Part shown: in pieces, positions 26,530-31,484 of the stretch
How the letters are laid out: the number at the start of each line of letters is the position of its first letter
Position numbering within the stretch: the stretch's first letter is position 1
Assembly: GCA_963796365.1 (NCBI GenBank)
Contig: CAWCLJ010000004.1
Coordinates: 1,229,208-1,293,207, forward strand
Length of the DNA: 64,000 bases
Direction: 5' to 3'
From: an uncultured Chloroflexia bacterium
GTDB taxonomy: Bacteria > Chloroflexota > Dehalococcoidia > Dehalococcoidales > RBG-16-60-22
The notes under the pieces: generated by a model
Database searches by the model: none
What the model was told of the DNA's origin: nothing
Seen by the model: only the letters and a program-made list of their open reading frames with translations
Position numbers and translations under genes: made by a program

Positions 26530-26676
26530 TCTGTCATCCTGGAGCGACCTGTCCCGTATGAGCGACTTGTCCCGCATGAGCGAAGCGAATCGGGAAGCGA
26601 AGGAGAAGCATCTGGTGGGGAGGTATTTACGCCCCTTTACCCCCACCTTGTTATTCTGAGTGTAGCGAAGAATCCG
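26530..26676. repeat. Family A repeat cluster with an internal ~18-bp tandem duplication
   Basis: CTGTCATCCTGGAGCG..., GAGCGAC(C/T)TGTCCCG twice, TGTTATTCTGAGTGTAGCGAAGAATCC. Confidence 0.6.
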
Positions 26677-29531
26677 TTCCTTCTACTATTTTTCGCTCTT
26701 CATCCGTGAGTCCGTATAGCTGATAGACGATTTCGTCAATCTTGTGTTCCAATTTTGAAACATCAACTTTGGGGTTCTGGGCCTTCGCGATAAGTATCTT
26801 ATCAACAATAGATTCTAAGTCTTTGGTCTTTGTTGTTACCGGGATAGGAAAGTTTTTCATAAAAATAGCGCTAGGTTCATAATAGCCATTTTGAAGTTTA
26901 GCCAAATACTTATCGAATAAAAATGTGACGGTGTTAGAATTTAAAATACCTAATAAGTATTTAGTGGTATTAGGTATTATGAAAGCTTTTTGGTTTGTTA
27001 AATACCCATTGTCGTCCCAGGCAAATTCGTTCCGCTTGCAGATATTTGGATAAATGATTTTTGGTTGATCAAATTCATCCCAATATTTACATGACCTTAA
27101 TTCCCAGAAATATTTTCCCTGGTCTTCACGCTCAATCAGCTTTTTTCTGAAGTCATTGAATCTGGTATAAATAGCTGGATACGTTTCCGCAAAGATCGCT
27201 TCAGCGTCAGTGGCAGATTTTCCCGACCAAGGATGCGTCTTGTTTTCAGATGACTCAATTTTAATCAAGTATTGGTCGGCAAAATTGATAGCCCACCTTT
27301 TTACGTCCTTACCCCTAAGAAATGGCTTTATAACTTGAGCGGATGAAGGATGTTCTGAAATTAAAAGGTCTTTTGTAGTCCCATCAATGACAAAGGCTTC
27401 GTTGAGACCAGTTAAAACACCACGGTAGAATCGTCCGTTAACATATTCGGATAGCGGTTTTCCAACTTTGCGTAGTTTTTCCAGTAATCTAAGTGTCGTC
27501 TTGGATTCCAACCTCCAACCTGAACCGGTCAAATCTTTTTGGTTAATCGTGGAGCTGTTGGTGGCAACAACGGCAGAGAATTTTTCTAGCTGTTCATTGG
27601 GATTCCAGGTAAAAATGCGGGTATTGTGTTTCCCTGGTACCGTTTTGCGTAGGACAATAATACTGGGATAGGTTATTGCCTCGAAAATAGGCGCGTCACC
27701 AAAATCGATAATCTGCTCTATCGTGGTCTTGGTGCTAAGAAATTCCCGCAATTTCTGACCATAGCCTGAACGGAAATATTTGTTGGAGGAAATGTACGTA
27801 AGGAAACCGCCTTCTTTGAGTAGTTGGATGCCTCTTTCAAAGAAATAGACATAGATATCGGCAACGCCGTCATAACATTCAAATTCTTTTTGCCATATTG
27901 GCTTGAATTCGGATAATTGCTCTTGCCGTATATACGGCGGGTTGCCAATAACAATATCGAATCCCCCTTTAGCCATAACATCATGAGAATTCGTCTTGCC
28001 AATCAAATGGGTGTTGGTTTTTCCAATCGGGGCCAAAATATTTTTCGAGTTCTTCATCGGTGCCTGAAACTAATGAGTTGCCCTGTTTGATGTTATTGCC
28101 CAGAAATGGCAAAGGCTCACGGTGGGCAAGACTGCGAAGTAATAAATTTAAACGGGTTATCTCAATAGCCTTTTTATCAAGGTCAACACCGAATATGCTG
28201 TTTGTTAGTAAAGGCAGGCGTTCCCACTGGTCTAGCTTATTTAATGGTTTGTTCAATTCTTTGGCATGGTATCTAAGTAATTCATCGTAAGCGCGGATAA
28301 GAAACGAACCGGAACCACACGCCGGGTCCAGGATTTTGATGTTATGCAATTTATCAGGATACCCCTGATTTTCCTTTAAGAAACGTCCTACTGTTTCGCG
28401 TACAATGTAGTCGGTAACAATTTTCGGGGTATAATAAATGCCCTGTTCTTTTCGGTGCTGTTTTTTATCGGTAAGCGTATAGGTCTGCGTGTTAATTCCC
28501 AGGTCCATTTTCATCTGGGCTTCTTTCGCCCGTTGTTTCATCACTTCGGCCACATGGCCTAGATATTGCTCGTAAACTGCTCCGAGGACATCGGCGTCTA
28601 TATCGTTAAAATTATAGCTGGCATGGCTTCCCGGAATTTCATATAAACCTGTAAGAATGGATTCGATCACATCATAATCAATATGTAATTCTGGATTATC
28701 CAAAGGATGCTGCAGTGTCTGGTCGAACAACTCGCTGTCATAATAGCCGTTATATTCTTTAAACAATTGCCTTAATGAAGCTAGTAAATTGCCTTTTGAA
28801 CCTGTTGTTTTATCCTGATGCAGTAAAGCTAAAAGTCCCCTTTCCTCAATGCCTCGGTCTTCTGCCGTACGAATAAAAATAAGGCGATTGAAAAGTTTTT
28901 GGATAATATCATCAATCTGTTCCGGCTTCAGATTAAATTTATTGTTATAACGAAAAATCTGATTAAAGAGTTGCTCGCGCCAGGAACGCATCTGGGCAAA
29001 AAGGCGCTTTTCTACCGGCGTAGGTGTAGGTAAAGCTCCCCATTTTACCGCTTCTTGATTGAGTGACCCTGAAATCAAAGATTCTTTTGATAATAACCAG
29101 AGCCTGTCGAAGTCAGTTTCGTAAAGATTGAAATCGAGAGAAATGAACGGTTCGGTCTTTTGCGAATTAAAAACGCGTAAAAATTGGAAGTTAGTAAGAA
29201 TAGCCCAGGTTACGCCTTTGTTATAGGCATAAGAAACGGCCTGTTTTATGTGCTTTGGGTCGTTGATATCCTCTTTGAATGCTTTAGCTTCAACGAAGAA
29301 TTGAGAAATACCGTGCAGCTTGAAAGCATAATCGACACGGCCGTTTGAAGTATTATCTTCCGGCGATACTTCGTCTATATTGCTAAAATCCCAGCCAAGC
29401 GCTTCAAAAAGAGGCTGTATGAATCCTTGTTTAGTTGCTGCCTCATTGTAAAGCTTAAGCTTATGCTGGTCGGTGGATGTGTATTTTTGAACCAGGGCGG
29501 ATACTTTTTGTTTTGCTTCCTCTTTGCCCAT
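26651..29531 (-). pseudogene. Type IIG-like restriction-modification enzyme (HsdR_N-like nuclease + N6-adenine MTase + TaqI_C-like TRD), one frameshift at ~27985
   Basis: VDY..FVEAK, GIYYTP, DPACGSG in ORF 27981-29531; GNPPY and TRD in ORF 26651-28057; removing one base joins FDWQDEF to HDVMAKGGFD. Confidence 0.8.
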
Positions 29532-29670
29532 CCCCTGTCTCCATTGTTATATTGTTGTCATTATACACTACCCCGCCCCAACTGAAAACTGATAACTGTG
29601 AACAAAAAACTGCGCTCGCCCCATCGCTCGTCCTGAGCTTGTCGAAGGATCAATATGTGACAAAATCCTC

Positions 29671-29700
29671 TTGACAATATCAGAACAATTGTACTATTAT
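29671..29700 (+). promoter_or_regulatory. Sigma70 promoter with a LexA-like SOS box in the spacer
   Basis: TTGACA 29671, TATTAT 29695, AGAAC-AATT-GTACT at 29682-29695. Confidence 0.55.
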
Positions 29701-29871
29701 TGCCTTGCACTATCAAGCGTCTCTTTCTCTGTAAACGGGGAAAGAGACAGGAGAGATAGGGGTCGGTAGGCACCTTAACAACCAAATATCCCGGTGTCAC
29801 AGGCATCTTGCCTGTGATGGGCAGGCTGGGAAGCCTACCCTACCGTCTCTTGATAACAAACGACCCCAAAA

Positions 29872-30158
29872 TCACAAAACGAACGAAGCTAAATCACGAA
29901 AAAGGGCTGAAAAATTACAAAACCAATGAGGCTAATAAGGGTAAAACCAGTGAAAATATGACAAATCGAATTGAAGCTAAAATTATGAAAAATCGACAAA
30001 ATGGCAAAAATCTTACAAAACCAATCGAGACTGTAACGAAATTATCGTTAGCAAAATCACAAAACGAAGTGAATCTGAAAAACCCATCTTACAAAACGAA
30101 TAGCCTGAATTACCCCCTTCTCCCAAAAAGCCCTTTTTACAAAACGAATCGAGGCTAA
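29872..30158 (+). repeat. Array of 7 interspaced degenerate direct repeats, consensus TYACAAAACGAA(T)YGARGCTAA
   Basis: Cores start at 29874, 29917, 29961, 30015, 30059, 30091, 30139. Confidence 0.8.
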
Positions 30159-30160
30159 AC

Positions 30161-30190
30161 AAAAAGGGCGGTTCTTACGCCGCCCCTTCT
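30161..30190. terminator. Hairpin terminator between the array and the convergent gene
   Basis: AAAAAGGGCGG-loop-CCGCCCCTTCT. Confidence 0.6.
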
Positions 30191-30212
30191 AAAGCTTACA
30201 GCTTATAGCTAT

Positions 30213-31484
30213 CTACGCCGTCGTGTAGCCCTTCTTAAAGAACCTTAGCGCCGCGAACTGGTTGACCGCCTGCTCCAGCAGCTTCTTATCCAGCGTGGCG
30301 TCCGCGCTCAAGCTGCGGGCCAGGAATACCTGCGCCATGCGCTGCCGGTCCTTCATGATGGAACGCGTGCCCAGGCCGCGGTAGGTCTCGATGTCCTGGT
30401 AGTAGCGGAACTCGAACATTTCATGGGCATTCAGCGGGTCGGCGACGCCCTTGGGCGCTTCGGGGGGTGTAAGGTGTACCTGGAGACGCCCGTCATGAGA
30501 CTGCAGCAGCCCGGCGACAAAGCTCCAGGCTGTCAGCACGGAAGGCACCATCGCCTTCATGCGGAAATTCTTGAAGTTGATATCGCTCTTTTTAACGGCG
30601 TCATATTGCGCCTTGTGTAATTTCGCGAAAGCTTTACCGGCTTCGGTAAGTCCCTTGTCCGTCCAGAGCTTCTCCCCCATCTTTTCCGTCAGCTCGCGGT
30701 ATTCTTCATCGAGCGAGATGCCGGTCTGGCAGAGATAGGGTTCATAGACATTGCGGTCGAGCTCGGGGTCCGGTATCTGCTTGCCGGTCTCCAGGCCTTT
30801 GAAATAGTTGACCATAAAGCTGCGGGCGCCCTGGGTCGTGATTTTTTCCGCGTGCGCGCCGACGTCCGGGAAGTCCTCGCCTTCTTTCAGCAGCCCGACT
30901 TTGGTGCACCATTTCCTCAAATTCGGGCCCATATAGGTCTCTTCCAACTGCCGGTCGAAAAGGTCGTTGGAGACGGCCATGCTGGTATTGGAAATCAGGG
31001 CGAGCTCCGTCCTCTGTTCCTTGGTCAGGTTGACGTAGATACGGAAGCCGTGGTAGCGGGAGACTTTTTTAGCTTCGTAAGCGTCTATGATAGCGCGGGA
31101 GCGGTGCTGGCCGCCCCATATCTTTAACGGTTTGGCGGGTATATAGGAAGTAATATATTCCGCGATGATATCATTAAATTCCCGTTCTTTTTCCGCGTCG
31201 GCTTTCATACGGATGAAGGTATTGTGCGTCTCGAGGATTTCACGGTTGTCGCGGAAGGTCTCGCCGCTTTCCGGGTTGAGCCGGGCGTCCAGGCTGACGG
31301 AACTGCTCATGGTTTTACCGGAGACGGCGCAGCGGATGTAGTAGCTCTTTTTAACGCCGTCCTGGAATACCGTGACCGGCAACTCTTCGGCTTTTTCCAG
31401 GGTATCTATTTTATCAAGGAACTCTTTAACGGTCTTTTCCACCGCGGCGTTTAACTCCGCGTTCTTCTCGAAAATAATTTTCAT
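30213..31484 (-). CDS. DGQHR/DndB/ParB-like domain protein (GGQHR variant)
   Basis: NREI...PLKIWGGQHRSRAI; GGAGG RBS. Confidence 0.55.
   Translation of the reverse strand: MKIIFEKNAELNAAVEKTVKEFLDKIDTLEKAEELPVTVFQDGVKKSYYIRCAVSGKTMSSSVSLDARLNPESGETFRDNREILETHNTFIRMKADAEKEREFNDIIAEYITSYIPAKPLKIWGGQHRSRAIIDAYEAKKVSRYHGFRIYVNLTKEQRTELALISNTSMAVSNDLFDRQLEETYMGPNLRKWCTKVGLLKEGEDFPDVGAHAEKITTQGARSFMVNYFKGLETGKQIPDPELDRNVYEPYLCQTGISLDEEYRELTEKMGEKLWTDKGLTEAGKAFAKLHKAQYDAVKKSDINFKNFRMKAMVPSVLTAWSFVAGLLQSHDGRLQVHLTPPEAPKGVADPLNAHEMFEFRYYQDIETYRGLGTRSIMKDRQRMAQVFLARSLSADATLDKKLLEQAVNQFAALRFFKKGYTTA

Follow-up and report, generated by a model that had tools for sequence, protein, structure and literature searches.

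The intergenic repeat array at positions 29,671–30,190 of the window, a 64,000-nt stretch of the genome of an uncultured Chloroflexia bacterium (contig CAWCLJ010000004.1 of assembly GCA_963796365.1), is a copy, lacking its open reading frame (ORF), of a multicopy cassette that is found across one Dehalococcoidia-type genus. The complete cassette opens with a promoter that contains a GACAAAA element and, in its spacer, an AGAAC-N4-GTRC box. Next comes a gene of 120-130 aa, here called ORF1, a paralogue of the small-terminase-like gene of a small/large terminase (terS-terL) operon that is widespread in the class. The last part is an array of a ~23-nt motif, TTACAAAACGAATCGARGCTAA, which at its start overlaps the 3′ end of ORF1 and stops abruptly with a terminal unit. 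REP-like hairpins replace ORF1 in the window copy. A tentative reading of these elements, drawn from sequence comparison and from analogy with phage packaging (pac) sites, is that the cassette descends from a phage-type small-terminase gene (terS) and that the array would be the pac-like binding site of the orphan TerS-like protein predicted from ORF1.

A multicopy cassette

A search of the assembly that holds the window (G000 in the following; 3.57 Mb in five contigs, with C2–C5 as contig labels) with positions 29660-30200 gave 63 matches. The whole ~300-nt A-rich array, spacers included, was found by BLAST at 16 G000 loci, and a seventeenth, more diverged array lies behind a paralogous gene at C4:1477 kb. 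A preliminary description of the locus, made from the letters of the window, had called the spacers unique, which holds within the locus, but the array recurs together with its spacers at the 15 other loci, with 80-87% identity. In most array copies the homology stops at or within the last unit, and the flanking DNA varies from copy to copy. The promoter part and the hairpin part of the cassette also recur separately in the genome, and a portion of the leader (query 111-191) appears alone in the BLAST search at more than ten other loci, on both strands. The orientation of the arrays with respect to their downstream neighbours, assigned by a crude longest-ORF rule, is convergent in ten cases and co-directional in seven, a difference that is not significant.

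The pattern TTGACA-N4-8-AGAAC-N4-GT[AG]CT retrieves 42 promoters in G000, most of them with a GACAAAA-type element 5′ of the −35 box, and this element is also kept in the homologous promoters of other species and genera. Such copy counts depend on the pattern used, and the relatives compared throughout are a sample of genomes. Ten of these box promoters are followed by the A-rich array (class A), five of them with ORF1, including one copy missed by the pattern through a substitution; 23 are followed by tandem units of ~48 nt, each approximately a class A unit in reverse complement (class B); six by the leader motif GCACCTTAACAAC and the class A terminal unit with a different body (class C); and the last three by none of these bodies. 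Of the 17 class A arrays, seven lack the box, five of these having a TTGACA-N18-TATACT-type promoter, one lying behind an IS200-type gene and one showing no recognisable promoter.

The array as a DNA or RNA element

Within the window, the seven ACAAAACSAA cores (at most one mismatch) start at positions 29874, 29917, 29961, 30015, 30059, 30091 and 30139, all of them on the plus strand, and the last one ends at 30148; both their number and their spacings of 43, 44, 54, 44, 32 and 48 nt agree with what had been described before. At the same threshold, the 64-kb window contains 17 core matches, compared to 10.35 +/- 2.97 in shuffled sequence, and seven of the 17 are packed into the 275 bases of the array, the other ten being scattered over the window. 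The array units are 68-88% identical to one another, and an alignment of the 16 copies shows the cores to be far better conserved than the intervening DNA. The cores are also kept in other species of the genus, where the number of units (three to five) and the inter-unit DNA differ. Conservation of cores and promoter at 13-20% divergence and across species implies that both are under selection.

The helical phasing of the units that had also been proposed finds no support. The chance that five of six spacings fall within 0.2 turn of a whole turn is P ~0.04 by simple arithmetic, and seven arrays from other species of the genus show spacings of 44-47 nt, followed by 79-81 nt (88 in one of them) before the last unit, a pattern that tandem duplication of a ~44-nt unit gives; phasing was rejected on these grounds. 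The array of genome G002 keeps the G000-type spacings of 99, 44, 32 and 48 nt. The array shows a strong asymmetry of A over T between the strands (AT skew of +0.37) and is predicted to be mostly unpaired. The single inverted repeat inside it, TAACGA-N5-TCGTTA, has no compensatory changes among the 16 aligned copies and is absent from the G002 array.

A 116-aa ORF overlaps the array in the window. The cores occupy all three of its reading frames, and the substitutions among the 16 copies fall on codon positions 1, 2 and 3 in numbers of 150, 152 and 161, with no periodicity. The ratio of non-synonymous to synonymous changes (pN/pS) is 0.74 in the candidate frame and 0.76 and 0.94 in the other two, as calculated from 13 of the 16 copies, leaving out two near-duplicates and one copy with a 44-nt deletion. 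Moreover, the copies differ in frame through 1-nt indels (an extra T is found in the window copy alone), the consensus frame runs past the element into unrelated DNA in most copies, and the ORF has no match in Pfam, NCBIfam, PADLOC or PHROGs. In the homologues of ORF1 described below, the first unit is translated at the C-terminus as an LTERIEA-like sequence in some proteins and as SQTNES in others. With the motif in all three frames and no coding selection, the array is a DNA- or RNA-level element. The preliminary description had reached this conclusion from the frames of the repeats, naming purifying selection on the 116-aa ORF as the observation that would tell against it; the codon-position and pN/pS results bear the conclusion out, and no such selection was found.

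It is accordingly very improbable that the array encodes a small protein, be it the 116-aa ORF or one of ~60 aa starting at the conserved ATGAAAAATCG. One plus-strand frame is unusually open: over 85-96 codons, 8 of the 16 copies have no stop or a single one in it, and in the four copies with ORF1 a shifted frame stays open for 90 codons, the other frames containing mostly 4-11 stops; and the stops created by substitutions number eight, when ~20 would be expected at random placement. A protein of this kind is nevertheless at odds with every coding test given above, and the arrays of other species differ in length as well as in inter-unit sequence.

ORF1 and the terS-terL operon

In five cassettes of G000, an ORF1 of 120-130 aa lies between promoter and array. 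It starts with an invariant stretch, RGGQPGNQNARKHGFY, and its stop codon falls within unit 1-2 of the array. Genome G002 shows the same box promoter, the same array and an ORF1 stop at the same place (unit 2). The array starts inside the 3′ end of ORF1 in G000, G002 and G012 and in two other families, so that direct repeats at the terS-like gene, as in phage pac sites, are found in all of them. Homologues of ORF1 form 44 protein clusters at E <= 1e-3, down to ~30% identity, some of them named 'YjcR' by the source and one coming from a Chloroflexota metagenome-assembled genome; many of the homologues lie on contigs of less than 1.5 kb. A search with a profile built from 23 of the 44 clusters (A1) detected a homologue in 202 of the 401 sampled genomes of the class, mostly one in each, and the same profile links ORF1 to canonical terS paralogues at 1e-20 to 1e-35. 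The protein has no Pfam match and, by tblastn, no match in the phage collection, and its AlphaFold model is all-helical (pLDDT, the model's confidence score, of 70).

A survey of the homologous loci in other genomes gave 22 readable loci among the 29 fetched, the other seven having no match to the search pattern. In 13 of the 22, a gene with an ARQGGKNE-type Walker A motif lies nearby, directly 3′ of the homologue where this could be read. The canonical partner in G000 (466 aa) matches Terminase_6C at 3.8e-8 and the large-terminase families phrog_2 and phrog_5909 at 4.7e-10 and 5.9e-11, respectively, the canonical terS-terL pair of this genome lying at C4 ~37-39 kb, and the canonical small subunits match the small-terminase family phrog_1889 at 6.6e-9 (G039) and 1.6e-6 (G000). 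At least 10 of the 22 loci have a GAAC-N4-GTGC box 5′ of the homologue, preceded by a GACAAAA element, and the box is also found in G002 and in the canonical operon of G012.

The ORF1 of the array cassettes has no large terminase gene beside it. The sequence AACGAATY was found in none of the 13 terL-linked loci, and it occurs twice on the plus strand just after the stop codon (+12 to +35 and +110 to +118) in three terL-less loci belonging to three families. From this distribution, the motif array is assigned to the orphan terS paralogue. Canonical terS-terL pairs are also present in IMG/VR, with no AACGAATY after them in the 5 of 21 loci that were readable.

The canonical operon itself lies behind a LexA-type box promoter and is composed of a small ORF (MK.L..A...RW.LAAH), a terS-like and a terL-like gene (loci L056, at G000:C4:24000-42000; L072, in G039; and L030-L050). 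In G039, a complete genome of 1.5 Mb, no capsid or portal genes adjoin the pair, and the genes next to it encode an Ig-domain protein, a CT398-like protein and an RNase H. The sole HK97-type capsid match (PF05065) in G000 maps to C2:211850-212386 on the minus strand (E = 9.6e-7), a different contig from that of terS-terL, and no PF04860 portal was found in this genome. The operon may be a domesticated terminase under SOS control. Near-identical IS200/IS605-type tnpA genes are present at C3:706.6-707.4 kb, directly 5′ of one class A array, and at C4:39.4-39.9 kb, between a class B promoter and the canonical terS-terL operon.

The LexA-type box

G000 contains one lexA gene, whose own operator is the perfect AGAAC-AGGT-GTTCT. 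Perfect AGAAC-N4-GTTCT boxes occur at C3:1054755, C4:1933450, C3:178612 and C5:13048, and the genes concerned are lexA, a Y-family polymerase (PF00817), a second gene with the same N-terminal sequence and a ParB_N-DNA-methylase fusion, with the non-lexA boxes 22-58 nt before the gene. The box of the window cassette is one base off the perfect form, in its right half (GTAC for GTTC). None of the 42 cassette promoters has GTTC: their boxes match the perfect form in the left half and in the spacing, and on the right they read GTAC or GTGC in every case. The GTGC form is found in the five ORF1-bearing copies and in 22 of the 23 class B copies, and the GTAC form in all 14 ORF-less class A, class C and unclassified copies (three of the latter), plus one class B copy.

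The LexA of Dehalococcoides reportedly uses a GAAC-N4-GTTC box. Compared to this Gram-positive-type (Cheo) box, the cassette box has the same left half-site, the same spacing and the same overlap with the −10 box, and departs from it in the right half. The LexA-type reading of the box in the preliminary description is supported in part. A LexA-type operator at this place is plausible on such sequence grounds; a weaker LexA site or the site of a different repressor are possible alternatives. The promoter region of recA (C4:840400-840760) resembles the cassette promoter module, with GAAAC-AATT-GTGCT overlapping a −10-like TAATCT and GAAGCTAA further upstream.

Possible origin and role of the cassette

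Under the small-terminase reading, the array would be the probable cognate site of the orphan TerS, because it accompanies only the terL-less paralogue and by analogy with pac sites. In phages of the SPP1/SF6 type, according to one published account, pac comprises sets of direct repeats at the terS gene and its promoters (PMC4737164). The cassette promoter, probably repressed through the LexA-type box, would send a transcript of ~480 nt through the array up to a terminator shared with the neighbouring gene, and the TerS-like protein would recognise either the array DNA or its transcript. The ORF-less copies, among them the one in the window, would depend on the five ORF1-bearing copies, acting as non-autonomous sites for a protein supplied in trans.

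Several observations weigh against this reading. The matches of ORF1 itself to small-terminase families are weak (0.005 for phrog_1889, 0.014 for phrog_509 and 0.034 for phrog_370) and confined to the RGGQPGNQNARKHGFY stretch, at residues 5-40; no helix-turn-helix domain was detected in the protein; its model gave a best E of 0.38 against PDB with Foldseek, and a profile search of PDB sequences nothing below E = 0.046. Canonical TerS proteins share the invariant RGGQPGNQNARKHGFY and yet have no AACGAATY nearby, so this motif alone cannot explain recognition, and the SF6 TerS is described, in the same account, as binding its own pac repeats with little sequence specificity (PMC4737164). Class B, with 23 box promoters and ~25 copies, carries the reverse-complement unit behind the same type of promoter. 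The copies, being old and 13-20% diverged, may simply be decaying selfish DNA. Finally, every copy read keeps a promoter-like sequence in fixed orientation, save one behind an IS200-type insertion. A site that works purely as DNA has no need of such a promoter, which speaks for an RNA product; the retention of the promoter and the A/T strand asymmetry fit an RNA at least as well.

The arrays could, as had also been suggested in the preliminary description, be genes for non-coding RNAs, a possibility that we consider somewhat less likely than the small-terminase reading. The product would be a ~480-nt, A-rich and largely unstructured RNA whose 23-nt motif titrates an RNA-binding protein, in the manner of CsrB/RsmZ, or pairs with the U-rich class B transcripts, and the copies would make up a paralogous family of small RNAs (sRNAs) partly under SOS control. 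Apart from the fixed orientation of the promoters, of either the box or the TTGACA-N18-TATACT type, their conservation across species is consistent with such a product, as are the skew and the predicted lack of pairing of the array and the fact that class C keeps the leader motif and the terminal unit around a different body with a GAAGCTAA-stem hairpin. The terminal unit pairs with a class B unit over ~24 nt at -18 kcal/mol, but for the whole class A/class B duplex the energy of -74.5 kcal/mol does not improve on that of shuffled sequences (-72.2 +/- 7.4), and antisense pairing was rejected. Furthermore, the class B RNA is not unusually structured (z = -0.48) and, its family being absent from the 17 other genomes of the genus searched, it would be no general partner. 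A non-coding RNA is also disfavoured by the lack of an Rfam family match, of a plus-strand terminator after the array and of compensatory changes in the internal hairpin.

Selfish or decaying repeat DNA with no present function is a less likely explanation. The cassette would be here a non-autonomous derivative, similar to miniature inverted-repeat transposable elements (MITEs), of a mobile cassette containing terS, spread by some form of transposition or recombination, and the motif units would be sites for the mobilising enzyme at one end, as in the ends of Tn7 or Mu. The dispersal of the copies in unrelated contexts, the coexistence of forms with and without ORF1 and the sharp 3′ boundary at the terminal unit would all be expected from such an element; many ORF1 homologues lie on short contigs, as repeats do in assemblies, and G000, full of other intergenic modules, is large for its genus (3.57 Mb compared to 1.2-2.6 Mb in the rest). 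A MITE or insertion-sequence-type element was rejected, however, as all units lie on one strand and there is no terminal inverted repeat. Nor was a target-site duplication apparent in the flanks viewed, which were not searched systematically, and no transposase is consistently adjacent, the IS200-type tnpA lying beside one array copy only. The conservation of cores and promoter noted above is likewise unexpected for decaying DNA.

A wider scheme, which we regard as improbable, would join the terS-terL operon, the orphan TerS paralogues and the dispersed arrays in one SOS-triggered system for handling chromosomal DNA. The arrays would act as pac-like entry or cleavage sites, where a domesticated terminase packages host DNA, as in gene transfer agents or lateral transduction, or processes it after damage, and the ~42 operators would also buffer the LexA pool.

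Layout of the locus and neighbouring genes

The features of the locus are given in Table 1. The TTGACA/TATTAT promoter, the AGAAC-N4-GTACT in its spacer and the three hairpins of the leader had all been pointed out in the preliminary description and were found where it had placed them, the hairpins both as inverted repeats and in the predicted fold: the leader has a minimum free energy of -65.2 kcal/mol, compared to -44.0 +/- 4.1 for shuffled sequences (z = -5.2), with 0 of 200 shuffles equalling it. Only the leader is REP-like in the sense of short GC-rich hairpins dispersed on both strands. Near-identical forms of its conserved motif, GCACCTTAACAAC, also occur outside G000, both in G011 and G014, which belong to the same genus, and in two further families.

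Table 1. Features of the cassette copy in the window and of its surroundings (positions in the 64,000-nt window)
Feature	Position	Strand	Remarks
Type IIG restriction-modification gene (not cassette)	26651..29531	-	Pfam and PADLOC matches; two overlapping frames, 27981-29531 and 26651-28057
13-mer TGTCATTATACAC (plus-strand spelling)	29556..29568	-	promoter/5′ untranslated region of the divergent restriction-modification gene, 24 nt from start codon
Upstream promoter-module motif GTGACAAAATCC	29657..29668	+	GACAAAA element just 5′ of −35 box
Sigma-70-type promoter TTGACA-18 nt-TATTAT	29671..29700	+	11 of 12 consensus positions; −35 TTGACA 29671-29676, −10 TATTAT 29695-29700
LexA-type box AGAAC-AATT-GTACT	29682..29695	+	in promoter spacer, overlapping −10 box; halves AGAAC 29682-29686 and GTACT 29691-29695, N4 between; within a 28-bp imperfect palindrome
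Leader of REP-like hairpin modules	29719..29850	+	inverted repeats; stems 29719-29748, ~29795-29817, ~29819-29841 (described before as 29719-29845)
Conserved leader motif GCACCTTAACAAC	29770..29782	+	precedes array or body in G000 class A and class C copies
116-aa ORF over array	29808..30158	+	judged non-coding
A-rich array, seven units	29871..30158	+	~23-nt core, consensus WTTACAAAACGAATCGARGCTAA; sharp end after last unit
Inverted repeat TAACGA-N5-TCGTTA in array	30034..30050	+	stem invariant, loop variable across 16 copies
Intrinsic terminator of convergent gene 30213-31484	30161..30186	-	GC stem (30166-30171/30180-30185), T-run on minus strand
423-aa GGQHR-motif protein (not cassette)	30213..31484	-	translation

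The terminator that had been attributed to the array has its T-run on the minus strand, so it serves the convergent gene; on the plus strand, AAAAA precedes the stem and a T-poor stretch follows it, and a terminator scan gave no plus-strand terminator after the array. The same hairpin may also stop the transcript of the element. It is the site of the sole Rfam match of the window locus, a terminator-like one on the minus strand with E = 0.27, below the gathering score, and no relevant match at or near that score came from Rfam searches with six loci of classes A and B.

On the left side, the cassette is flanked by a type IIG restriction-modification gene of ~40% GC, compared to ~55% in the flanks, which suggests a recent acquisition; its split in two frames could be a frameshift or an assembly error. 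The gene on the right encodes a GGQHR-motif protein with no Pfam, NCBIfam or PADLOC match and no significant PHROGs match. Both neighbours are incidental, and the cassette is not tied to its flanking genes.

The preliminary description had also considered a loading array, of the iteron or centromere kind, for the adjacent ParB/DndB-like GGQHR protein, and a guide-like array similar to CRISPR, ideas that followed from the position of the array next to this gene and from units that are interspaced direct repeats. Neither is now credible. The loading array (iteron or parS) fails because the GGQHR gene, single-copy in G000, is next to 1 of the 17 arrays, in flanks that vary with each copy. Guides are contradicted by the degeneracy of the units at spacings of 32-54 nt and by the conservation of the spacers across the 16 paralogous copies, and the array has no DNA match in the phage collection. 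As for cas genes, none had been noticed nearby in the preliminary description, no dedicated search for them being made; the flanks hold the restriction-modification gene, the GGQHR protein, a peptidase and a ligase-like gene.

Besides its site in the window, the 13-mer TGTCATTATACAC is found in the 3.57-Mb genome only at C4:1122679 and C3:334322. At all three sites a distance of 24-25 nt separates it from the start of a divergent gene for a DNA-methylase/restriction fusion, and a class A cassette lies next to it. This gene is the type IIG one in the window and combines N6_N4_Mtase and Mrr_cat at the other two sites, so that 3 of the 17 cassettes abut restriction-modification-type genes with a common promoter motif.

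Related intergenic modules

Class B is represented at ~25 G000 loci (for example L020:480-775, at C4:1027269-1027574), with a box promoter of the GTGC form followed by 2-4 tandem units of ~48 nt, each ending in GAWTCGTTTTTT and corresponding roughly to the reverse complement of the class A unit plus an 11-13-nt insert. The copies are 74-90% identical to one another, with 7-base microsatellites after the units. Class B promoters come in runs of the same orientation, plus at 0.16-1.36 Mb and minus at 1.6-1.84 Mb of C4, and mostly minus in C3; the GC skew is too weak to define replichores and to relate these runs to replication.

Class C copies are located at C4:1502284(-), C4:701907(+), C4:1366787(+), C4:381740(+), C3:920814(+) and C4:521679(-). 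In these copies the GTAC-type promoter is followed by GCACTATCA at the start, then by hairpins and by GCACCTTAACAAC, after which the A-rich body differs from that of class A and includes a hairpin with the stems TGAAGCTAA/TTAGCTTCA (GAAGCTAA stems), and most of them end in the class A terminal unit. Microsatellites with a 7-base period (AACTGAA/AACTGAT, AGCTTAC/AGCTTAT, GGGGTAA/GGGGTTA), some of more than 200 nt, flank both class A and class B elements, and in the window they are present at 29583-29603 and 30194-30212.

Comparison with known systems and significance

The nearest known systems are the pac-site/TerS pairs, the mosaic intergenic repeat families and the LexA regulon. The LexA-type operator would point to induction on DNA damage, a trait of many prophages. 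The cassette is similar to the pac/small terminase systems of the SPP1/SF6 phages in having direct repeats at a terS gene and its promoters (PMC4737164), with a TerS homologue as protein partner, but the repeats of the cassette are located from the 3′ end of ORF1 onwards and not at the start of the gene. Unlike in phages, ORF1 has neither a large terminase beside it nor a detectable helix-turn-helix, there are no adjacent capsid or portal genes, and most of the ~17 chromosomal copies of the cassette are without the gene.

With the REP/BIME, Correia, BOX and ERIC families, the cassette shares a dispersed, modular and intergenic nature, the nested leader hairpins and a copy number in the tens. 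Some mosaic intergenic repeat families carry promoter activity. The cassette copies differ from these families in that each has its own full sigma-70-type promoter, in which an operator is conserved, and in the 23-nt motif, which is not palindromic and repeats with a period of ~44 nt; a fixed 3′ terminal unit and an associated protein gene are further differences.

CsrB and RsmZ are multi-site sponge RNAs that titrate an RNA-binding protein, and the repetition of a short motif all along a putative non-coding transcript with little structure recalls them; the cassette motif is, in contrast, long (23 nt) and not placed in hairpin loops, the gene is multicopy, and ORF1 is the sole candidate binder. 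ToxI and CRISPR arrays also consist of a promoter and direct repeats, but the units of the cassette are degenerate and irregularly spaced, the DNA between them is conserved between copies, and no toxin or cas gene (the latter outside any dedicated search) follows the array in the window. The cassette is not a type III antitoxin array.

No description of the cassette was found in Rfam, nor in literature searches on terminase, LexA and repeats in Dehalococcoides, Dehalococcoidia and Chloroflexota. It unites a LexA-type promoter with ~42 copies per genome, a terL-less TerS paralogue and a fixed 23-nt array, a combination that was not found described. For annotation, the neighbours of the window copy (a restriction-modification gene and a ParB-like gene) are no guide to the function of a cassette that is spread over the genome. 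The cassette also points to a little-studied terS-terL operon, retained by about half of the sampled Dehalococcoidia-type genomes, which in one complete genome of 1.5 Mb stands apart from any capsid genes. If the TerS-like protein does bind the motif, the cassette would be a simple and testable case of terminase domestication, or of a minimal packaging signal, in an environmentally important group that is hard to culture. If the arrays are instead RNAs, they would constitute a large SOS-linked family of sRNAs.

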